Source of the DNA: Podarcis cretensis
Taxonomy: Eukaryota
Assembly (NCBI GenBank): GCA_951804945.1
Contig: OX638154.1
Span: 60,512,001 to 60,576,000 of the forward strand
Length of the DNA: 64,000 nt
Reading direction: 5' to 3'
Of the stretch, positions 3,272-59,812 are shown in pieces. The notes beneath the pieces were generated by a model. The model had not been told where the DNA came from and searched no databases. It was given only the letters and a program-made list of their open reading frames with translations. The translations under genes and the position numbers were made by a program. The first letter of the stretch is position 1; every line of letters starts with the position of its first letter.

Positions 3272-6125
3272 GCACCATATTTAGCATCCAGAGCATTGTA
3301 TACCAGCATTGCACACCTGGTTTTCTGACCTCAAGCCAGGACAAAATAAACATCCAGGCATTTGAGGAATTTTAGACATGCTTCTTGGCAACCCTGATAT
3401 CAGTGGATGAGAGAACTTAACTGTAACTGTTTTACAATTGCTTTTAAATTGTTTCATTGCGGACATGTTTGATAATGGTGGTGATGTAACTACAAACACC
3501 ACCTAATTAGTAAAAAACAAAGGAGAAGAGTATGTAGGATGTGGTCCAGGGACCAGTGTGGGTACCGTGAGTAATGTCACTATCACCAGAGCAATAAAAT
3601 CTGAATTTTGAAACTGAGAATTGAGGGGGCAAACCTATTCGGAGTGGGTTTGGGGTCCAAAATCAAAATCAAGCCAGGGGTAGCTCATCTTTCATGAATC
3701 TCAATGAAACATGCATAGAAGAACTTCCTGTGAACTGGTTTACAAGTCTTATGGACATGCTCCCACACAAATTTATTTAAAAGCCAATGTCATGCCCTAT
3801 TATCCTCTAAACAGTGCATATGAAAGCAAGGTCTTGACATCTGTAAAACTGGGGTCAGAGTAAGGTCGTGCAACAATGCATTTTTCCTTCCAACTGTAGG
3901 TCTTTGCATGGGTCATGATAGAAAAACGCTTACATATTTTCCACATTTCATCTGTTTTGATATCCAAATCAGAATGGCAAGCAGGCTGCTATTCAGAGCC
4001 ACAGCTTTCATTGTCTCTGCCAATCTAGGTCATTGTTTAATTTCTTTTCCAAAGGGGGGAAGAAGGAGCACGTTTTTTCAATGAGATGCCAATTCTGCTC
4101 TTCTGTTATTCTCACTGTAGTTTAAGAACCACAATCACATAATTAGTTTTAAAATGTTGTTTCTCCTCCGTAACATTTCAGCTCTTGTGTTACACCACAC
4201 TATTATTTATTACAAAAGTGTCCCCATGACTTAGATTTTCCTGCAGATTATATGCAATCTTCTTATTTTAACAAACATGAGAAGATTTCCATTCTCTTTC
4301 TGAGTGCACAAAGGAGCAATGCAAACAATTTCTGAATTAATTGGCTTTTAATTCTAAGAGAAGTACAGAGCTTATACCCTGAATGCATCTTATGATGATA
4401 TAATACCTAGGAATTAATGAAGTAAACATTCAAAAACCCAATTAAATACAGTTAAAGTACTAGCAGCAGTTGTATTACTATTTGCTCTGCACAACTGATT
4501 AAAGGCTTCAAGTTTATTTTTCCACCACATTTCTAGAAATATTTTTATTTTAAGAATCAGTTGGCATTTGCACTAAATAAGCATTTTACAGTTTTCATAG
4601 CTTGGGCTACAAGATGCACTTTTGATTTTATTTGAACAAAAGCAGACTAGACAGGAGAAAATAGTTTTGTGGCCTGTAATATTTTGAGCATTAATGAGCT
4701 ATCACTTGGGTTAAGAAGAGTTAGTAAACTAGAAATACATTTATTCCTCCTCGCCCAAAATGCATCAATAGTGACCGCCACCTAAACTCTCCTGGCTAGA
4801 AAATAACACAACACAAGGAAAATATTGTATGTCCTATATTACACATGTACAATAGGACTTTTCTATCAACTGGTGCCCCAGATAGAACTGGTGCAAATAG
4901 AGAAAATTCAGTTTATATGTTTTCTCTGGGAACAAGGAGAAAGAAGAAGCACACAAACAATTGAAAAGAAGCCAGTCAAGGAACAAAGTTGTGTTTGGTG
5001 AGTCAATTAAATGCTAGAGTTGAAGTGCTCAACGCTCAATGGCAAGAATCAAAACAACGTGCTGCTTTTGACCTGGTGCATCAACAGTTCTAATTACTGT
5101 ACTGCAGGAAAATTGGGGGGACGGACCTTACAGTTCCTGCAGAAACAGTCTATTTTGGAGAGTTCCATGTACTGTACACTTAAAAGTGTGGTTAGTTTAA
5201 AGGGGGAGGGCTGGTTTACACAGCACTTCACCAGCACCACACAAACATGTGAGTTCCTGGGGAATAGTTTACTGTTGCTTTGCCTCTCTCCAGCCTATTT
5301 TACTCCTGCGGCATACTGAGGTGAGCCAAAATTTTATTTGGATGTTGTTCAGACTCATGCCCATGATGAAAGTCTATCCTCACCCATCCCAAGCTGCACC
5401 AAATAACAAAGTGAGAGCTTAATCCAGGTTGAGCCCAGGTTGGAACAGCATGCTAAGCCAAACCCTGGCTTAGATCAGCAACACAGTGTCAGTGAAAAGG
5501 ACATGGAAGGAGCAAAGCAGCCATAAGCTCCTCACTGTTTGCACAGTCCCATTAATGCATAGTGCAAATACAATAGTGGGTACAATCTGCTGTTCCCAAC
5601 CATGGTCTTTGTACTCCTCCTGGTAAGCAGCAGCAATGTGACCCACTGGAGGTCAGGGGAGCAGTGGTGCACCATCGTACCATCCACTACAGCTGTAACT
5701 GCAATACTAACTGTAGACATAGATCCTAATAAAGAGATGGCTACATGCAATGAAGTTTTGCAGCACATGATTGCTTACAAACAGATAAAAACTGCATGTA
5801 CTGGCCCTAGATAAGAAATAAGTACTGACTATCATTCACAGCACAAAACAAATTTACACAGACATGCTCTATCCACAGTATACAATGCAATGCACATGAA
5901 TGCTTAGATGCACACCTCCGTTTGATCTATGTGCATCAGGTGCCTCCTGGCACAGCATTTGACATCCACACAACAGAATGCAGTAGTATGTGATGATTTG
6001 AGCCCAACTTCAATGTGTGGACCTCCCTTTCTGGACTGGGACAACTGTCAAAATTATGATGGGGACCAGAAATAGGAGGAGGGAGGCTCTGAAAAGAAGA
6101 GCCTGGGTACAAATTTTGTGTCAAT

Positions 6126-6891: not shown

Positions 6892-7260
6892 AGGTAATGG
6901 GTAAAGGGACCCCTGACCATTAGGTCCAGTCGTGGCCGACTCTGGGGTTGCGGCGCTCATCTCGCTCTATAGGCCGAGGGAGCTGGCGTTTGTCCACAGA
7001 CAGCTTCCGGGTCATGTGGCCAGCATGACTAAGCCGCTTTTGGCGAACCAGAGCAGTGCACAGAAACGCCGTTTACCTTCCTGCCGGAGCGGTACCTATT
7101 TATCTACTTGCACTTTGATGTGCTTTCGAACTGCTAGGTTGGCAGGAGCAGGGACAGAACAATGGGAGCTCACCCCATCATGGGGATTCGAACTGCCGAC
7201 CTTCTGATCGGCAAATCCTAGGCTCTGTGGTTTAACCCACAGCGCCACCCACGTCCATAT
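6892..7260 (-). mobile_element. Sauria SINE, full length, with TSD
   Basis: Reverse complement of the 2893 copy. 13-bp TSD ACTGTCCTCATAA at 6879-6891 and 7261-7273. Confidence 0.93.
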
Positions 7261-9650
7261 ACTGTCCTCATAATCACAGTTAAATTAAACTGAGGTCCTA
7301 GTCTTCCAAAATATGTCCTTATTCTTCCCCACCTAATTCCTCTAAAATACATCGATATTATTTCTGTGGGAAAAAATCCTTCACAGATGGACCATTTTCA
7401 GTTTTCCAATGTCACAGTAACTCTCTTAGCAATCAGCAAGCATAAGAAAAAAAATTCACTTCCCATGGCCTCTTGGGATTCTGTGTACTTCAGGCACATC
7501 TGCTATGTATTTCTTTCCTTCTATATAGAAAAAAAGCCATCTGACCTAAGCTCTGGGAATATGCATAGTTACTCGTTTTTAAAAAAGAAAAACAATTAGA
7601 TGAAGATGAGAGTACAGTCCACCAAGAGCATCTGACCTATTTATTGTAATTTGTAATATGTGTGATTATCTTAATTCCACACAGATTTTCAGTCATGTAA
7701 CCTAGATCTGCAGACAGGCTTAACTAGCCATACTATGTGATCAGGGAGAGAAATACCATTAATAATAGCACTTTTCAGTATACATACAAAGTGCTTTCAA
7801 TTCTTAATTCATTTATCATCACAGCAAGCCTGTGAACAGGTATAGATTTAATCTCTGAATAGGTTAAGTTTGGAGACATCTCACAGGGCCCCTTTCATAA
7901 CCAAATACATCAAACCCTCAACTGCATTGCATTGGCCCAATGCGGAAAACAATGAAACATTTGGGAACCTGAAGTAAATCGATTTGCTCTCTAACTCTAA
8001 AATACTGCTATGTGCAAATGTAGTCATAGTTTTATACACATGAGGAAATAAGCTACTTGTAATTTATAAAGGGTGCTGGTGCTGGTACAATTGCTCATTT
8101 GTTTTCTTCTTCTTCGGCCAGTTCTGTATTTTAACACAGTGTGACCACAACTGACACAAGGGTTATGTTCCCAGATGGTTGCACATAAATGCAAAATTGT
8201 GCAAAGTCAGAATAACCCCCCCCCCGAACCACTCCCATCATCTGAGATGTTGAAAATTCTTGGACAGTCCCACAAGAGCCTCCAGAGCAAAAATTTCCTG
8301 CTCCCTTTCTATTCATTTATTGGTCCGCATAAAGCTGTGATCACATAAGCAAAATCAGCATGTTGGGATCCTACTGTATATTCACTTACTATTGTTATAT
8401 ACGTAATTGGAAATGACCAAATTACTTGAATCGTTTATCTGTCATGCCTGTTGGATATTAAACATAATATCAGAGGAAGAGAACTTTCCACCATTTTCTT
8501 ACACTATATTCTTTGACAAACTGCATAGCGACAGAGCAAGATGCACCAAGTTATATTTTAGCTGAGACGTATAATTTATTTATACACACCAGAATTATTC
8601 TTCATAGATTTTTGTCATGTATTTGATGATACAATGAAATCCAGCTGCTACTGTGATTTAAAATCCCCAAATCCTATCTATCTTTTTGAAAGGAGCTTCT
8701 TAAAAAAAACAACACAATTTTTACAGATTTCTACAACAGTAATGTACAAAAGCAAAATCAAAAATCAAAAAATGATTATATTATGATGAAAAACAAAAGT
8801 ACACGAAGTCTTCTCAAACTTTGTACAGCAGAAAACAACAAATCGTGTCCTCCCTAAAAGAGGGCACGTGTTATGGTGAGATCTGGAGACTGACCCCCTC
8901 TGTTGTGGGTGGGTTTGATTGGTTAGCCATAACATCCAATTGGTAGGTGCCTTGATGTTGGGTCCAATCTGACCAATGGGGTGCAGTCCAAACAGATTGA
9001 GGGACCTATATATACCCATGCATGTGACCCAGAGCTTCCTCTTTTGGCTCATGCATTCGGAACAAGCTAACAGCGTGTCCTCTGTGCAGCTGAGAGACTT
9101 ACCTTTGACGGATCGTCTGACTGATTTCTTTCTATTTTTTATTCCCCCTTTTTGTTATTGCTTTTTATTCTTCCTTTTGAGTTGTTCTCTCCCCCTTCCC
9201 TTCCCTTCCTCTTAACGGGGCTTTGCCCCTCTGGGGCTCCAGCCCCCGGACGCTCCTGTTGTGGAGCTTGCTGCTGCTCTCCCCTTTCATTTTGGTGGTT
9301 GGTTTTTCTGGCTGCGGTAGCAGCCTTGTGCCTAATACATGACTTTGGGCAAGTGCGTTTGTCACTCCTTTAGCCCTGTCATTAAGTCCTTTGATTGGTT
9401 TCATAGCAGCGAGAGTTCCCTCTCCCTGGCTTTATTGTGCTCCCTTTCATTTTAGCTGGGTAGTGTATTTGTTAAGGGCGGGAAAAACCTCTGTTTTGTT
9501 CTGGCCGCCATTTTAGGTCACAGGGTTTGGTTCTTCCTGACGAGTTTTGGTGGGAGCGCCATTTTGCATTGGCGGGAGTGCCATTTTAAAGGCCTGGGTC
9601 TTTCTGTGTATTTGTAATTAGCATTCCCTACACAAGACAAAAGGACCGTG

Positions 9651-10730
9651 ATGCCTATTAAAAGGAATCCCAGTCCTGCTCTCCCTTCTAAGAGGGTCAT
9701 TAGGGGTCCCTCTCAGTCATTGCGTTCTGTGCCAGCCCCTGTGGTTCATCAGCCTATGCTGGATCGCTTGAGTGCAATTATGGCCAATATTGGCTCAGAC
9801 CCTGCTGCCATGACTCGCTTTAATACAGAACTTGAGTCACTGGCTCAGCAGTTTGGGAGGCAGCCTGATGCTCAGCCCATCCACGTCCTCTACTGTTTTT
9901 GAGGCTCACGGTCCTTCGGATGTGAGCGAAGGGAGTGAGGTTTATGATCCTTCTGAGGCTTTGCTGTCTCCATTTCAGCCTTCCAGAATACCAGACCCAG
10001 CTATTCCTAGGGGTCGTCCTAGGAGCATGGGTGCTATGGTGCAGCGGGCCTTTCGGTCAGGGCTGCCTTGTTTGCAGTCGGCAGCCCCAGGTTCTGGGAG
10101 TTCAGGGCTTCAGCCTGCACAGCATGTGGGAAGGGGAATTTTCTCCCAGCCAAACTCCTCACATGTTTTTAGTTCTGTGCACATTCGGTCTGTTCCTTCG
10201 AGGGAGGCGCTCAGTGTCCAGTCTTTGGAGGAGGATCTCCCGGTGCCTAGAGTGTGTTGTAGTGGTTAAGAGTCGTAGATTCGTAATCTGGGGAACCGGG
10301 TTCGCTTCCCCGCTCCTCCACATGCAACTGCTGGGTGACCTTGGGTTAGTCACATTTCTCTGAAGTCTCTCAGCCCCACTCACCTCACAGAGTGTTTGTT
10401 GTGAGGAAAGGAAGGCAAAGGAGAATGTTAGCTGCTTTGAGACTCCTTCGGGTAGTGATAAAGCAGGATATCAAATCCAAACTCTTATCTTCTTATTCTT
10501 CTTCAACTGGTGGCAAGCGGCAGAGGAGTCATCGCTCCAAACGCATGGCCAAGAGGTGGAGAGATGGCGATTCATCCTCTTCTACTGGTACGTCTTCTCA
10601 GATCTTTGATGATGATTCAGTTCTGGGTTGTCCAGTAAAGGATGCCAAGAGATATTTGTCACTTCACCCTTCCTGGTTCACTAGGATGGGTCCCTGTTAA
10701 GGAGGCATCGATTTGCTGCAGTAATGCGCA
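9651..10730 (+). pseudogene. Decayed ORF1 (gag-like, by position) of the YR element, interrupted by a SINE
   Basis: Broken ORFs 9648-9902, 9832-10269 and the post-SINE part of 10392-10700 lie between the promoter and the YR remnant. Identity inferred from position only. Confidence 0.4.
10249..10505 (+). mobile_element. Squam3-like tRNA-derived SINE nested in the YR element
   Basis: A box TGTAGTGGTTAAGAG, B-box-like GGGTTCGCTTCCC, CORE-like GCTGGGTGACCTTGGG..AGTCAC, and a CTT-rich tail. Confidence 0.85.
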
Positions 10731-10732
10731 AT

Positions 10733-10849
10733 GCACCTCATTCCTTTCGTATTGGTGCAGCTACTACTGCTGCGCACTGGGGTCTGTCCGTCAACAGGAT
10801 CAAGGATCTGGGCCACTGGAAATCTGAGGTATACAGGGGTTAAGTTTGG
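10733..10849 (+). pseudogene. Tyrosine recombinase C-terminal remnant
   Basis: Manual translation from 10739: HSFRIGAATTAAHWGLSVNRIKDLGHWKSEVYRG*V. This matches the HxxR...GRWxS..Y..Y signature of DIRS/Ngaro YRs. The expected catalytic Tyr codon is TAA (10841-10843). Confidence 0.9.
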
Positions 10850-10896
10850 ATGCAGCGCTGAGGTGCAGTTATTAATGTTGTTTTGTTCATTCCTAG

Positions 10897-11471
10897 GCCC
10901 GCCTGCCCTGCACGTCTGGATAGTCGGGCACAGCATTGTCCACTGGGCCAGCATGAGGGCAGTGGAGTCTGGATTCGGATGCAGGCTCGGACTCCCCGGC
11001 CACGTGTGCATCTCCTGAGTGTCCAGACGAGGAATGCGTTGGGAGGAGCTTCTCCCGATGGTGCGGGCAAAGGTGTCTGTGGAAGGCACGCCTGCAGCGA
11101 TGATGGTGCAGCTGGGTGACAACAATTTACTGGAAGCTCCCAGCTTGAGCCTGTGAACCCGCATGCAGGAGGACTTGGAAGAGTTGAAGGCAGCTCTTCC
11201 TGGACTCAAAATTTTTTGGTCGCAGCTGTTGCAGCGACGTGTGTGGTGTGGTAGCCAATGCCCAGCTGCCACTGAGAGGGCCAGGAGGTGCATGCAGAGC
11301 GCAGTGGCCAAGAAGGTTCTGGCCTTGGGTGGGACGGTGATCCATCACCCGGGCATTACCTTCTGTGATGCGTCCCTTTACAGGCTTGATGGGGTTCATC
11401 TGTCTGTGATTGGGAATGATTTGTGGCTGACCTCCGTGTCAGCAGGGTTAAGGGATTGGTTACAGATGTGA
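10897..11471 (+). pseudogene. SGNH/GDSL hydrolase domain remnant of the YR element
   Basis: A single frame gives VWIVGHSIVHWA (block I), RRGMRW (II), VQLGDNN (III) and DGVHLS (V), with in-frame TGA at 11016-11018 and 11154-11156. It joins ORF-track pieces 10731-11018 and 11163-11471. Confidence 0.88.
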
Positions 11472-13161
11472 GTGGTTGGCAGCAAGTGCAGTGTTCGTGT
11501 GGCGGATAGGAGATAGGGATGGGGGAGCGGTCTCGCCATCCCTATGTGAAGGGTATTCCGTTAAAGGAATCCATGGACTCAACTGGTTTGGTCAACCCCT
11601 GAGATGGGGTTGTACCCATACCTGAGTCCAGGGGGGGCATCTGGGTGGTGAACAGAGTCTGTACCCAACTTTTCATCTTCCCAGGTGTTCACCCTTGGCT
11701 GACCTATGCTGGTGCCCTGGGTTAGCGCTGCCTGCAAGAGTGCAGGGAGCTAGTTGAACCAGAGCCTATGCAACCACTCACCTTCTGTAATCAATAAAGA
11801 TGTGTCCTAAATTCTGCCAAAAACCCAAACTAAAATTTGAGTCACGTGTGATTTTATTTAGGGGGGAGGTCTCTAGGTCTGAACACGCAACAACAAATGA
11901 GCTCAAAAGAGCTAATTCTACCTTAAACATTAGATGTAACTACCTAGCTTCTTATATATTGATTATTTTCCAATTATTTAATATCTGCCCTAATTACATG
12001 AGTCTCAAAATGTAAATTAGAGCTTCTTATGAAGACACAAACTATTCACTGGGTGAGGGTACTCTTCCAAGGAAGCTTTACAACTGAGCTTTGCTCCTGC
12101 TGCCAAATTATCTCTGCATTCCCTGTCTGTCTACCTCTTTGAGGCTGCCCAGATATCATCCTGCAAGGTTGCTTCCAATGTAGCTTGCCAGCTTCTGCTA
12201 CCTGCACTTCCTGTACTACTCACCCTCCAAATGCACCCAGCTAGGCAATTGTCTATATAACAATTTTAAAAGCCTTGTTCATGAGCACATCCACCACAAA
12301 CCAAACCATGCACCCTATGCGTACACTGCATTATCCACAAACCTGATTTAGTCCTGAAGTAGCTCTGTGAACTTTAACATGCTTTCAGTAAGATAATTAT
12401 TAGAATACATAGTCTTTGAAACACTGTCTTAAAGTACTGGTATTATGCTTGGTAAATGAAAACTCCCATTTTCCAACCTCCTGTACACTGAAATAACTAA
12501 CAAAGGAATGATAAATTTGTACATTACCAATGCTACGCTGTTGCGACTTATTGTGACAAGCTGAAGGGATTTTCTCCCCTCTTTCGAAGCTCTGGATTCC
12601 GTTTTTACAAAACGAAATAGAGACTAAGGAATGAGAGGGGGCAAAGTACACAGCTAAGATCAGAGTATGTTGTAATTAAGTCTGTTAAATGTCTACTAAA
12701 GGGAAGCTGTGCTGGGGAGAAGTGAAACTTTCCCAGTCACAAAGAGTCATCTCCAGAGAGAACCAGGGGAGGAGGAATAAATACCAAGAGGTAGTTTTTT
12801 TACATGTATTTGAACATACACAAAGTCAGAGCTTTCAAATCCACTGAAGACATACATGCCAGCTTTCTAAGCTGGTACAGACATTATGTGGAGCTAAACC
12901 ACAACTTAGTGTTGTATGAATAAGACTAGCCTTTCTCAAGGCGTCTCCCTCTTCCTCTGGCATGGCCACAAATAGTTGGAAGGCTTTGTCTTCCTTTTAT
13001 TATTTTTATTTTTAGAATGTAACCCTGTGTAAGTTGAAAGTTGTGTGTATGTGGGAGGGGAAAATACTTTGTGTGTGGGTTAGTTAGGGTTGCCATATTT
13101 CAAGAAGTAAAAATCTGGACACTTCAAAGCTTTTTTTTAAGGAAAACCCTAAAGTTATTAA

Positions 13162-13368
13162 AAAGGTAAAGGGACCCCTGACCATTAGGTCCAGTCGTGG
13201 CCGACTCTGGGGTTGCGGTGCTCATCTCGCTTTACTGGCCGAGGGAGCCGGCATACAGCTTCTGGGTCATGTGGCCAGCATGGCTAAGCTGCTTTTGGCG
13301 AACCAGAGCAGCGCACAGAAACACCGTTTAACTTCCCACCGGAGCGGTACCTATTTATCTACTTGCAC
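13162..13368 (-). mobile_element. Sauria SINE, 5'-truncated
   Basis: AAAGGTAAAGGGACCCCTGACC... to ...CTACTTGCAC, matching the 3' half of the 6892 copy. Confidence 0.88.
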
Positions 13369-21065: not shown

Positions 21066-21992
21066 TTGGAAAGTAAAACTCCCAGGTGGGTGTCACCAAT
21101 GGAAGCTAGGGAAGTAAAAAAGCTTAATATGGACTCTAAATGGCCAAAATATTGTGAAATTTTAGAATATGATGGTGAAAGGGTTAAACTTCAGAGTTAC
21201 GAGAAATTAAAGCCCAAAGTTCGAGATTGGTTGCACTATCATCAGATAAATGAGACATTTAAACAGGACAGGAAAATAGGATTCCAGAAAGAGAGGTCAA
21301 AACTAGAAACAGAATTGTTAGAACCCAATACTAAGAACTTATCAAGAATGTATAACTTGCTGTTGAAATGGAATACACAGGACGAGACGGTGAAATCAGC
21401 TATGATTAAATGGGCACAAGACATCGGTCATGATATTATGTTTGCTGACTGGGAACAGTTATGGACTACCGGTATTAAATTTACTGCATGTAATGCTTTA
21501 AAAGAAAACATTATGAAAATGATCTATCGGTGGTACATGACCCCAGTCAAGCTTGCAAAAATTTATCATTTGCCAAATAATAAATGTTGGAAATGTAATG
21601 AGACTGAAGGTACTTTTTACCACCTTTGGGGGACCTGCCCGAAGATTAAAGCTTTCTGGGAAATGATCTATAATGAAATTAAGAAAGTCCTTAAGTGGAC
21701 TTTTCCTAAGAAACCAGAGGCTTTTCTCTTGGGCATGGTTGGCCAATTGGTGTTAAAGAAGGATAGGATTTTCTTTATGTATGCTACCACAGCAGCAAGA
21801 ATTCTACTGGCGAAGTATTGGAAGATGCAAGAACTACCTACTCTGGAAGAATGGCAAACAAAGGTGATGGACTTTATGGGACTGGCTGAGATGACGGGCA
21901 GAATCCGTGACCAGGGGAAGGAGACAGTGGAAGAGGACTGGAAGAAATTTAAAATATACCTTAAAAACTGTTGCAAAATTGAGGAATGCTAA
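21066..21992 (+). pseudogene. L1 ORF2 C-terminal 308 codons (CCHC zinc-knuckle region), truncated
   Basis: CWKCNETEGTFYHLWGTC motif with an uninterrupted frame. EN and RT domains are absent because of 5' truncation. Confidence 0.88.
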
Positions 21993-37729: not shown

Positions 37730-38353
37730 AGGTAAAGGTAAAGGTACCCCTGACCATTAGGTCCAGCTGTGGATGACTCTGGGGTTGTGGTGCTCATCTC
37801 GCTCTATAGGCTGAGGGAGCCAGCGTTTGTCCAAAGACAGCTTCCGGGTCATGTGGCCAGCATGACTAAGCTGCTTCTGGCGAACCAGAGCAGCGCACGG
37901 AAACATTGTTTACCTTCCTGCTGGAGCGGGACCTACAGTGGTGCCTCACAAGACGAAAAGAATCCGTTCCGCAAGTCTCTTCGTCTTGCGGTTTTTTCGT
38001 CTTGCGAAGCAACCCTATTAGCGGCTATTAGCGGCTTAGAAAAAGGGAGAAAAAAGCGAAAAAAATCGCAAGACTCGCAAGACGTTTTCGTCTTGCAAAG
38101 CAAGCCCATAGGGAAATTTGTCTTGCGAAGCGCCTTGAAAAACGGAAAACCCTTTCGTCTAGCGGGTTTTTGGTCTTGCGAGACACCACTGTATTTATCT
38201 ACTTGCACTTTGACGTGCTTTCAAACTGCTACGTTGGCAGGAGGAGGGACTGAACAACGGGAGCTCACCCCGTCACGGGGATTTGAACCACCAACCTTCT
38301 GATCGGCAAGTCCTAGGCTCTGTAGTTTAGACCATAGTGCCATCCGCGTCCCT
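37730..38353 (-). mobile_element. Sauria SINE interrupted by a Tigger-like MITE
   Basis: 12-bp TSD TATGTGGGCTTA (37718-37729 and 38354-38365). The SINE body is split at the TA of ACCTA|TTTATCT. Confidence 0.92.
37936..38191. mobile_element. Tigger/pogo-like MITE, family A copy 2 (nested in SINE)
   Basis: Same TIRs as 31270; duplicated TA at 37934-37935 and 38192-38193. Confidence 0.92.
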
Positions 38354-44924: not shown

Positions 44925-45134
44925 GTCGGGGACGCAGGTGGCGCTGTGGGTTAAAGCCTCAGCGCCTAGGGCTTGCCGATCGAAAGGTCGGCGGTTCGAA
45001 TCCCTGCGGCGGGGTGCGCTCCCGGTGCTCGGTCCCAGCGCCTGCCAACCTAGCAGTTCGAAAGCACCTCCGGGTGCAAGTAGATAAATAGGGACCGCTT
45101 ACCAGCGGGAAGCTAAACGGCGTTTCCGTGTGCG

Positions 45135-45171
<37 letters not shown>

Positions 45172-45312
45172 CCAGAGCAGCGATGTCACGCTGGCCACGT
45201 GACCCGGAAGTGTCTCCGGACAGCGCTGGCCCCTGGCCTCTTAAGTGAGATGGGCGCACAACCCCAGAGTCTGTCAAGACTGGCCCGTACGGGCAGGGGT
45301 ACCTTTACCTTT
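44925..45312 (+). mobile_element. Sauria SINE, young CpG-rich subfamily
   Basis: A and B boxes intact. 13-bp TSD TAACAGATGTTTA (44912-44924 and 45313-45325). Internal (GGCTCT)6. Confidence 0.94.
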
Positions 45313-55853: not shown

Positions 55854-56219
55854 AAAGGTAAAGGTAAAGGTACCCCTGCCCGTACGGGCCAGTCTTGACA
55901 GACTCTGGGGTTGTGCGCCCATCTCACTTAAGAGGCCAGGGGCCAGCGCTGTCCGGAGACACTTCCAGGTCACGTGGCCAGCGTGACATCGCTGCTCTGG
56001 CCAGAGCCAGAGCCGCACACGGAAACGCCGTTTACCTTCCCGCTGGTAAGCGGTCCCTATTTATCTACTTGCACCCGGAGGTGCTTTCGAACTGCTAGGT
56101 TGGCAGGCGCTGGGACCGAGCAGCGGGAGCGCACCCCGCCGCAGGGATTCGAACTGCCGACCTTTCGATCGGCAAGCCCTAGGCGCTGAGGCTTTAACCC
56201 ACAGCGCCACCTGTGTCCC
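55854..56219 (-). mobile_element. Sauria SINE, young subfamily
   Basis: Near-identical reverse complement of 44925-45312. AAATACCATCA occurs on both sides. Confidence 0.93.
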
Positions 56220-57949
56220 TATAAATACCATAAATACCATCATATTTACATGCAAATGCCACTACAGTGTTAAAATGTTTTTCATCAAATCATACCCGAC
56301 ACAATTTCCATCAACAAATTCATCTTTAGTTTAACATTATGTAAGTCTCTGGAGTTGTTTCAAAGCCTGCTGAGAAACCAGGATTCCCAGACTACATCCA
56401 GATAAGGGGCCTAGTTCCTCCACAGCCACCATTGTGAAGGGATGCCTTTTTACACATGAGAAGGTCTAAGAGTCTATTCCCCACCCCCACCTTCAAGCTC
56501 TTTGCTTATACAGAGACATCTAGAGGTGCACAGATAAACTCTCAAATACCCTCAGTATTTGTACCTTTGCAATTCATTAGATATGTTACGAACAAGTGAA
56601 AGTTTTAAATGGGGCAAAGCATGCTCTGCCATCTCCTCAGTAAGCTTTCTTTCCACGCAATCCATGCAATAATTACTCTGGTAACTCGAGGATGCATACA
56701 GCATGTACATCTCTACAATGACTATGAAGCTTGTGTCCTAAAGTAGCAGACATCCTTCTCTGACTTGCTACATTGTATCTCTGGTTATAACAGTTTTTTG
56801 TGTTCCTTTCACAAGGGAGGGGGAAGAAGCTGAACTCCTAATATATCATATAAAAGAAAACCCCCGACAAACACACGAATCAGTAGTGCTTTTAAAAATA
56901 TGAGACTCTAATAATACACCTTTTTTAAATGGACAGTAGAGAGCAGCACAATGATGTTCAGGAGATGCATTATGAAAATGACAGATTGCAAACCAAGATC
57001 ATCCCTAAGTATATATCGGTTTAGGCTCAGAGCTGAGCACAGTTGCAAACAATAAAAGCTTTGTGTTTTTCCCCCCTGATTTGGACTTAGAATTCCTTCT
57101 GCGTACTATTGAAATCAGAAAAATTGCTTGACTATCTGATGTGCAATTACCTTATGAACAGCCCCAGGGAACTACCAAAGCATCTGCAACATTGCTGTGC
57201 ATAATAGTAAACACAGAAGAAACATATTTTTTGTGGGCTGTCACAATAACATGACATTGTGTATAGCTATAATAGAACGATGGGAACTATTACTCAGTCA
57301 CAAAACAAACTCCATTTCCATCACACATGCAGCTTTCCACCAGGAACGCTGAATCCTGGTTGCTATTATTTTTTAAGCACACAATCATATATTCTCCCCC
57401 CACCTCTCTCCTGTGCTTTTTAGTGGGGGGCAGAAGTAATTATAAGGACAAGGCTGATCTTCATAGGGGTTTATAAGCAAGAGCACAGGAAAAGGAAGCC
57501 TGTCTTATAAAAGAATGCAAAGTGTCTAATAAAGAATGCATGTCAGAAAGCTGGAAGGAAGCTTTTTCACTGTTGGGTTTAAAGAGATGAGCAGCGAAAC
57601 TTCCTTCTTTTATGTATCAGGAGGGAGTATGGAGAAAGCAAGACAAGTTGAGTGCGGGATGAATGCCGCTGTCAGTGCCTGGAGAATCTGTGCCTTGTAA
57701 TGAAGTGGGAAAATAATGAGGAGCTTGAAGCATTTTTCCTCACCAGAGCAATTACAGGGGACGCTCCCCCCCCACCCCCCATCATGCCTACACGGAGGAG
57801 CCAGCAGTCCAAGGAGGCAGAAATAGAGCATCCACAGCCTCCTCTCTCTCCACAACTCCCAGTTGCTACCTCCTGACAGACAAGGGGGGGGGGGGATTAT
57901 TATTCCTGCACGGTTCTTTGCCAATTTGTAGGATGGGTGCGCTGCAGAA

Positions 57950-59190
57950 AACTTGCCTCGCCACTCCTCAGGGCTGCACGTGAAGCAAAGCAGGAATAGG
58001 AAAGGGGAGGCAGCTTTCGCGTTGGAGAGGCGAGGGACCCACCAGCATTCAGCGAAGGGAGCAAACCCAAATGCCATCCCATTGGGGACGGGGGGGGGGG
58101 GGGAGAAGAGGTTCCTTTGCTCTAACATTGCCTCCCCGCGCGCGCGCACGTGTCCCACTTTGTTTTCATCCGGAAAGAGGACGGCACCTGTTCTCGGGAC
58201 GAACGGAGCCCGGCTGGGTAGAGGACACGCGCTCCGCGGAAGGGGGAGCGGGGCTCTCGACTTCGACGAGGCGCGCGCAAGGGAAGCCCCGGCGCCTCCG
58301 CGGGCGCTGCTCCCCGCGCCAAGGCGCACGCGCAGCCTTCGCCCCCGGCTGCCCCACCCCCTTTGGCGCCCGCCGCCTCGCACCCGACTCACCTCGCCGG
58401 GCCGAGCCCTCCCGCCCGCGCATGGTCGGAGACTGAGGCGGCTGCTGCCCGCCCGTCCGCTCGCTCGCTGCTCGCCTCTCTCTTTCTCTCCTGCGCTCTC
58501 CGTCCCCAGCTCAGCCCGCGCGCGGGTCCGCCAGCTCCTCCATCCCCCTCCGCTGCTCGCTGGGTGCATCCGCCCCCTGCCGCCTTTGCCCTCTCAGGCC
58601 CCCGACGACGCGGTTAAGCTGGGGCCAGCCGGAGAGAGCGAGCGAGCGAGAGAGGGAGGGAGGGAGGGAGGGGGAGGCCAAGGAGGAGAGGAAGGGTCTC
58701 TGGCTGCCGCCGCCGCCGCCGCCGCCGCCACTGCTGCTGCTGCTAACGCCGCCTCCTCCCCCTCGGAGAGACGCGAGGGAGACGCGGGGTGGGGGGTGGG
58801 GAGAGGATTTAGCGCCTGGATGATGGTGAGGATGAGGAGGAGGATTTCTGAAGCGGCGTGAGGGTGTCCTCGGCGTGTAAGAAAAACAAGCTGGGGGCGG
58901 GGAGAGAGAAAGCCAGGCTGGGTTCTCCTCACGCGACTCGCAGGCTCCCTGGTCCAGGGAAGGAGGCATCCCTGGCACGGCGAGAAACCAGGCTCCCCTC
59001 ACGCGCCCCTCTTTTCGCTCCACGCCCCTCCATCTCCACGCGCCAGCCGGGAGACTTCGCGCGCTCCTATCGAAGTGGAAGAGAAACTTTGCGAGGACGA
59101 GGCTCTCTCGTTACCATGTTACCCCCCATAGGAACAGGAGCCTCAAGACCCAGTTCAGACTTTTCGCCAATATGCCCGGGCATCTGCTTA
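57950..59190. promoter_or_regulatory. CpG island promoter of the minus-strand gene
   Basis: Abrupt rise in GC and CpG density in non-repeat sequence, GC boxes, GCGCGCGCACGTG (NRF1/E-box-like) near 58140-58152, and a (GCC)n(GCT)n tract at ~58705-58753. Confidence 0.92.
58393..58800 (-). other. Exon 1 of host gene (5' end/TSS approximate)
   Basis: Consensus donor CGAG|GTGAGT at 58393/58392 inside the CpG island. Gene unidentified; NCOA1 is only a tentative, unverified guess from recalled leader exon sizes. Confidence 0.7.
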
Positions 59191-59812
59191 TAGCCAAATA
59201 CTGTCACATCCCTCCTCACAAACGTTTGCACTTCTGTATCTTCTTTTTTTCTTTTTTTAACTGATTGCAGGAGGAGAGCTGTTATAATTACACCGAGGGA
59301 AGGGGGGGGGGAAACCCCACTTTAATTTGCCAATTTCATTAAATGATGGTGTTCAAGAGAGATGCGGGGAAATTATATATAGTTACAGGCATTCTGCGCC
59401 TCAGAAAGAACCAGCCGTGTACTGTAAATCCAGAGTTTCCTTGCAATTAGATTATTCAAATGCACGCATACACGCAGGGAGAGCGCGTGCCTGCAATTCA
59501 CTGCTTCCTCTCTCGCAAAGGCTCGCTCTGACAGGGTCTGGAATAGAAACCGCCCTCAAGAAATCTGGTTGGACCCTGAAGTTCTGGCATCCCGTTTTAG
59601 GGCACCAAATCCCCAACCAAGGATGCACAGGGTTGTTGCTTTTTCATACTTCGTTCCATCCATTTCATGCCCCTGCACCTTTTGCATGCTCCTTAATAGC
59701 ATGTCAGCCATTTTTCATTAATAAATCATTGTGAGGAAGGATAAATCTCGAGTGGAATGGTTCACTATCTAAAAGTGAGATTTTTTGCTCCTACTCATGT
59801 TCAGGTTGCTGG

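Follow-up and report, generated by a model that had tools for sequence, protein, structure and literature searches.

A decayed Ngaro element of Podarcis cretensis from a lizard family whose SGNH hydrolase is likely encoded by a last exon that is spliced to the N-terminal half of ORF1

Hydrolase-bearing Ngaro retrotransposons are known from Xenopus, in which DIRS-53_XT and DIRS-54_XT have been described (PMC9210276). Here we analysed a stretch of 64,000 nucleotides of Podarcis cretensis (contig OX638154.1, positions 60,512,001 to 60,576,000; hereafter the window), which carries at 8844-11888 the relic of a tyrosine recombinase (YR) retroelement with an SGNH hydrolase. The family of this relic shares with the Xenopus elements the order of gag-like protein, reverse transcriptase/ribonuclease H (RT/RH), YR and SGNH, the split direct repeats, the degenerate copies that lose repeats, and a hydrolase of no proven function. 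It differs from them in its lizard host, in a spacer of about 170 bp between the repeats A2 and B2, in the presence of a precisely intron-less copy, and in that we read SGNH as a spliced exon on the N-terminal half of open reading frame 1 (ORF1) and not as a separate overlapping ORF (PMC9210276).

Two further systems are comparable. In the ORF1 protein (ORF1p) of the long interspersed nuclear element (LINE) ZfL2-1, an SGNH esterase with a Ser-Asp-His triad follows an N-terminal helical part with a coiled coil and an arginine-rich motif, and the protein dimerises, hydrolyses and binds liposomes (PMC3905857). The predicted lizard protein would resemble it in this arrangement. However, ZfL2-1 ORF1p is encoded by a single ORF of an element without long terminal repeats (LTRs), and its coiled coil, activity and lipid binding are proven, whereas the lizard protein would be made by splicing, its activity is predicted only, and a single-sequence fold of the fusion (P0015) was uninformative, with a predicted local distance difference test score (pLDDT) of 44. 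In LTR elements, the 3' accessory ORF (ORF3 or env) typically comes from a spliced message and can have SGNH cargo, as in the GDSL ORF3 of the rotifer Vesta1 (PMC5408684); the lizard elements, which belong to another retroelement order, differ in that the predicted donor lies inside gag and would give a fusion protein. The accessible parts of PMC3783388, PMC9341512 and PMC13003380 hold nothing on the hydrolase, and a literature search, outside of which lay the two main reviews and all supplements, found no description of a spliced Ngaro hydrolase.

Our analysis makes it highly probable that the window element, a lizard Ngaro copy, is dead and carries a private deletion, and that in its family SGNH is likely a spliced last exon on the N-terminal half of ORF1. 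The preliminary description of the window had assigned the relic to the Ngaro group, and judging from domain order and repeats the family indeed is a lizard member of the Ngaro superfamily (order DIRS). Searching the same genome gave 1666 first-look candidates, 40 of which were scored, and 10 kb around 39 were fetched (hereafter the old family); all counts from this genome are lower bounds. The longer copies encode ORF1 with a CCCH-like finger, RT (RVT_1), RH, YR and SGNH, and of the order ORF1-RT/RH-YR the window keeps only the N-terminal half of ORF1 and the YR tail. RVT_1 and Phage_integrase both exceeded the Pfam cut-off in intact copies, and no methyltransferase was matched by Pfam in the pol ORFs of the family. 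Split direct repeats (A1..B1-A2-B2, present as B1-AAAT-A2-spacer C-B2) were found in one of the 39 old copies, L038, upstream of which lie diverged Ngaro fragments. From younger families, found by protein search, 20 copies were fetched by SGNH score, a choice biased to intact elements. Sixteen of them had split repeats, with A1=A2 and B1=B2 at 98.8-100%; one was 5' truncated and three had the form A-ORFs-B. Set against the single old copy with split repeats, this indicates that the repeats are lost with age. The ends of the copies have only an AA core in common with the target, as expected for integration by a recombinase.

The predicted splice sites are both in phase 1. A YAG|G acceptor was present in 16 of the 16 copies checked (10896|7 in the window), which span families about 50% identical in protein, and its codon position was always the same, seven codons ahead of the W-x-x-G-H-S motif. 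It is preceded by a tract of 68-82% pyrimidine, compared to a background of about 50%, and there is no conserved Met upstream of the catalytic Ser. On the other side, a pattern search for the donor matched 13 of 14 ORF1s, with G|GTAC where ORF1 encodes its conserved S-G-T-S, and the donor is also present in the one that it missed (L182). Around the donor, ORF1 shows a conserved basic motif, a Ser run and S-G-T-S; in the window, where the donor is at 10587|8, the ORF1 half terminates in the basic motif and SSSSTG. The AG is kept in 21 of 26 old-family copies, and the GT in all six that hold the site. Furthermore, 16 of 25 longer homologues among NCBI models (369-471 aa), which come from Podarcis and Zootoca, link the basic motif, Ser run and Gly to the SGNH start.

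A genome search with a fused NCBI model exposed a young intron-less genomic copy, L195 (G000:C7:20212748-20216943, minus strand), in which the donor is joined to the acceptor to the base, without the 3374-nt GTACGT..TCAG interval that is present in four of four siblings. Both splice sites had been chosen before this copy was seen. Its identity to the L182 family is 93-98%. L195 has AA-core ends and repeats identical at 100% (A1 and A2) and 99.8% (B1 and B2), and codes only for the ORF1 N-terminal half, with one frameshift, and for SGNH. As a re-inserted copy that lacks the intron, it constitutes evidence at the DNA level of spliced RNA in the germ line. It was the only such copy among 111, 40, 101 and 150 scored candidates, and none was found in 20 old-family ORF1 copies.

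With regard to the hydrolase itself, modelling indicates that the family protein has an SGNH fold. The model of an intact family member reached a pLDDT of 92, its top Foldseek matches were GDSL/SGNH esterases (E 6e-8, TM score about 0.7), and the Ser, Gly, Asn and Asp-x-x-His blocks were found, block I being GHS and not GDS. The best PDB sequence match of the family profile was 4c1b, an 'ORF1-encoded protein' (E 0.0027), which we regard as the ZfL2-1 esterase. The ratio of nonsynonymous to synonymous rates (omega) of SGNH was 0.12-0.31 in seven of seven pairs of intact young elements, and in the same comparison it was 0.04-0.06 for RT and 0.07-0.13 for YR, where synonymous divergence (dS) was measurable. 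In 35 old-family copies, the non-CpG singletons in SGNH were 68 silent, 210 missense and 11 stop changes (omega 1.07), and the changes common to at least three copies gave an omega of 0.42; an RT singleton omega of 0.36, from six copies, was set aside as based on too few copies. The low omega between intact elements, together with neutral private changes, indicates that the esterase is under purifying selection in active families, that it mattered to autonomous elements and that it decays after insertion. A retention of the hydrolase, for which the preliminary description had proposed dN/dS as a check, is not borne out by the private changes. Among the intact families (L167, L172, L176, L178, L180 and L182-L184), the synonymous distance was lower for the SGNH exon than for RT in six of six pairs having an RT value (e.g., 0.54 vs. 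1.35), which may reflect either extra constraint on the exon or swapping of 3' modules between families.

The commonest relatives of the element lack the hydrolase. Among 29 other top loci of the B end, 22 were stand-alone A-C-B units of about 785 bp, three had a partial SGNH, one a whole SGNH, and three were B fragments. The spacer C gave 2379 first-look candidates. Of the 30 top loci among them, 29 are stand-alone units. Stand-alone A-B units are also present as solo repeats in Cafeteria Ngaro, where they are ascribed to inter-repeat recombination (PMC8547959); in contrast, here such A-C-B units are the dominant form. The units of about 785 bp (L076-L104, L111-L134) far outnumber A-ORFs-B copies, although B1 and B2 are the longer and closer repeats, and they may represent insertions of the unit itself and not remnants of recombination. 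An inverted A-C-B unit (5280-5951) was observed upstream of copy L046. A young non-autonomous lineage (L168-L171), whose members match each other at about 99% across most of their length and have perfect repeats, contains stop-free stretches of at most 152 aa between 2300 and 7000. The lineage is chimeric, in that an old decayed interior is combined with an A1, an SGNH and repeats that come from the intact L180 family. The SGNH of the lineage has a shared TAG, with this profile in 26 of 113 rows of the genome search (four fetched whole), and since a lineage that carries this stop has spread, the esterase is dispensable in cis. A second recombinant, L181, has its crossover in YR and an open SGNH. 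About nine loci show two SGNH starts some 1.1 kb apart with near-equal scores and a 139-aa frame (e.g., G000:C1:101271647, C9:29739792, C4:102896441), possibly another chimeric lineage.

Several observations weigh against our reading of the family and of the window copy. The donor scored 2.0-3.6 on a rough matrix, on which other GTs of ORF1 score higher, and the best control windows are at least as rich in pyrimidine as the tract of the acceptor. The NCBI models may be ab initio. No RNA reads across the ORF1-SGNH joint were found in two putative RNA runs, which covered the element too sparsely to speak for or against the joint, and at the L195 junction the contigs of four public runs, which show presence and not absence, had unspliced ends only and none bridging. 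L195 was found only once, in a single assembly, and has a 3-nt GGT overlap at its junction, as a repair deletion could leave. The Pfam matches of SGNH were all under the curated cut-off, family members included. Finally, compared to the column majority, the window SGNH has 12 silent, 19 missense and 2 stop changes, and this omega of about 0.58 is not cleanly neutral, probably because lineage and private changes are mixed, with subfamily changes counted in. If the acceptor were incidental and L195 a chance deletion, SGNH could be translated from full-length RNA by frameshifting or re-initiation after YR. In some copies the SGNH frame indeed continues without a stop into the end of YR, a Met lies just past the acceptor in two families, the Xenopus hydrolase was described as an overlapping fourth ORF (PMC9210276), and frameshifting has been proposed for YR (quoted in PMC13003380). 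Nevertheless, we consider such translation improbable, given that in other families stops close the frame a short way upstream (leaving 194-203 aa open) and the catalytic Ser is not preceded by a Met, and that the position and phase of the AG are fixed across such divergent families. As for L195, the coding region contains about 200,000 endpoint pairs with 3-nt microhomology, so that chance would produce the predicted pair at about 5e-6 per deletion. A spliced last exon, which is well supported at the DNA level, remains our preferred explanation for the family hydrolase.

Concerning the window copy, alignment to longer copies placed its large break in the middle of ORF1, at 10627/10628, from where about 3 kb comprising the C-terminal half of ORF1, RT, RH and the N-terminal part of YR are deleted up to YR; the abrupt jump reported earlier near 10730 corresponds only to a 36-nt deletion at 10731/2. 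Long microhomology at the large break was rejected, as the overlap is 1 nt. The preliminary description had proposed a non-autonomous derivative without RT/RH and most of YR that kept the hydrolase, and, if many copies shared the deletion, a mobilised lineage; in such a lineage the hydrolase would have been kept because of its use. In line with this, the window SGNH is whole, with its S, G, N, D and H residues, the deletion lies within the predicted intron and spares both exons, and our genome counts are lower bounds. We find it very improbable, however. A search with a 131-base junction probe gave 20 candidates, all scored, and none of the 19 other matches spanned the window junction, nor did any of the 39 fetched old copies or of the 20 old-family ORF1 copies; the closest other copy, among the 40 scored of 1666 candidates, was 84% identical over most of the query. 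In the ORF1-bearing old copies, the remaining nine of nine visible 3' junctions differ from that of the window, and eight of the nine have SGNH damaged or missing. Preferential retention of the esterase is not seen in deleted relatives, A2 and B2 are absent from the window copy, the commonest relic is the A-C-B unit, and the lineage that did spread has an SGNH stop. The esterase probably survived in the window because SGNH adjoins the 3' end and not by selection, and the copy resembles 'ORF1 plus esterase' because its deletion falls within the predicted intron, a position that nothing shows to have been selected. An element like the one imagined does exist elsewhere, namely L195, as a single copy and via precise intron loss. 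Another possibility, compatible with splicing and leading equally to a dead end, is that the window copy was defective from the start, with the 3-kb skip, the loss of A2-C-B2 or both having occurred in reverse transcription or circle resolution before a single A-ORFs-B circle integrated. The A-ORFs-B form already occurs in three of the 20 young copies, of which one is 98.8% identical to a sibling with repeats, and resolution of a two-junction circle would give A-ORFs-B and A-C-B, both of which were seen. Yet nearly all old copies, but few young ones, have large internal deletions, a difference that speaks for decay after insertion, with the reservation that the young sample is biased to intact elements, and we hold a defective birth to be rather unlikely.

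On the preferred reading of a spliced family hydrolase and a decayed window copy, an autonomous parent (A1-ORF1-RT/RH-YR-SGNH-B1-A2-C-B2) would have been integrated by its own recombinase at an AA core. The window copy would then have lost A2-C-B2, probably via recombination between B1 and B2, and about 3 kb of its middle, gained a short interspersed nuclear element (SINE) and decayed. As it has no internal B1|A2 junction, the copy would lack a template from which its ends could be rebuilt and would copy no further, and since the internal complementary region (ICR) was indispensable in an experiment with DIRS-1 (PMC7192593), we infer that it is a dead end. In live elements, unspliced RNA would yield Gag, Pol and YR and serve as genome, and spliced RNA would yield a protein of about 415 aa with a helical N-terminus, a disordered linker, an Arg/Lys motif and the esterase. 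By analogy to ZfL2-1 ORF1p, such a fusion would most likely tie the ribonucleoprotein (RNP) of the element to membranes. More broadly, we put forward as a tentative proposal, with doubt slightly outweighing confidence, that one conserved intron in vertebrate Ngaro elements gives rise to both a full Gag and a fusion of the Gag N-terminus, basic motif and esterase, which would converge on the ORF1p of esterase-bearing LINEs and steer the RNP to membranes. Since the spliced RNA would keep all terminal repeats, it could itself be retrotransposed into esterase-only elements like L195.

The locus itself is an ordinary fossil, and its value is that it leads to a defined, testable protein form for the hydrolase with exact splice sites. 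In this way it connects YR retroelements with the question of why SGNH esterases occur time and again in unrelated retroelements. A spliced exon would also explain why the SGNH exon is prone to capture by host genes. Five NCBI models of 1030-1570 aa (P0024-P0028; Zootoca, Podarcis), some of them ZNF638-like or SRRM2-like, end in this Ngaro SGNH exon, which suggests its capture via its own acceptor.

The features of the window copy are listed in Table 1, and the region is set apart by its GC content from the surrounding window. Much of its earlier reading was confirmed: its ends match the family ends, the first repeat contains the promoter motifs CCAAT (8936, 8964 and 8973) and TATATA (9007), and ORF1 is decayed, with a 5-nt frameshift deletion at 9874/5 and a SINE inside. 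The inserted sequence is SINE-like and 88-92% like repeats at other loci. A recombinase tail had also been recognised and is present (56% identity to intact YR over 63 columns, E 7e-21), although it extends to about 78 codons instead of about 40. It contains HSFRIGAATTAAHWG..Y and shows, apart from the 36-nt deletion, a 16-nt deletion at 10664/5 and a premature TAA at 10841-43. A profile search had been recommended for these domains; Pfam gave no match to the YR fragment alone and matched the window SGNH to Lipase_GDSL_2 below cut-off (E 0.04), the identity of the latter being backed by the fold of the intact relative. As described before, SGNH contains its four blocks (I, GHS, 10926; II, RRG, 11025; III, GDNN, GEND in the family, 11115; V, DGVH, 11388) and two point stops (TGA at 11016-18 and 11154-56). 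The structured 3' region also held up, with a z of -5.4 and none of 200 shuffles equally stable; A2-C-B2 is missing 3' of the B repeat. The flanking AACAACAAAT is likely an (AAC)n target plus the AA core of the family. It was rejected as a true target duplication, since other copies have only AA or AAAT in common. Rfam and a tRNA scan gave no matches, and no long inverted repeats like those of DIRS1 were found in the window copy or in the longer copies compared.

Table 1. Features of the Ngaro copy in the window.
Feature	Position	Strand	Remark
A1 terminal repeat with promoter motifs	8844..9064	+	AAAT core (as at the B|A junction) directly before
Pyrimidine-rich 5' leader	9065..9650	+	Collinear with other copies
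ORF1 (gag-like) N-terminal half, predicted exon 1 of the esterase mRNA	9651..10587	+	ATG 9651
SINE-like insertion, 247 nt, within ORF1	10254..10500	+	Other copies without insertion
Predicted splice donor CTG|GTACGT, phase 1	10588..10593	+	GT in 6/6 old-family copies holding the site
Private ~3 kb deletion junction, 1-nt overlap	10627..10628	+	Inside predicted intron
Tyrosine recombinase C-terminus remnant (HxxR box, catalytic Tyr region)	10628..10861	+	Alignment to intact YR
Predicted branch region, pyrimidine tract and CTAG splice acceptor	10865..10896	+	
SGNH hydrolase exon	10897..11471	+	Blocks I, II, III, V present
Single B repeat	11508..11888	+	Stable RNA fold, AATAAA 11793, terminal hairpin
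AACAACAAAT	11889..11898		Also at 8834-8843

In the remainder of the window, a GC-rich island at 57600-59200 (70% in 58001-59000) with long frames and no Pfam match is probably a host promoter. A scan for a host gene, which covered 26 of the 44 long frames present here, gave only a sub-threshold match to HrpB_C. An open frame of 308 aa at 21066-21992 is of low complexity, with a strong purine skew and a Pfam match that is only sub-threshold. One SINE-like repeat family occurs at 6900-7256, 13165-13368, 37737-38351, 44929-45312 and 55855-56219, and two of these copies are 98-99% alike and inverted.

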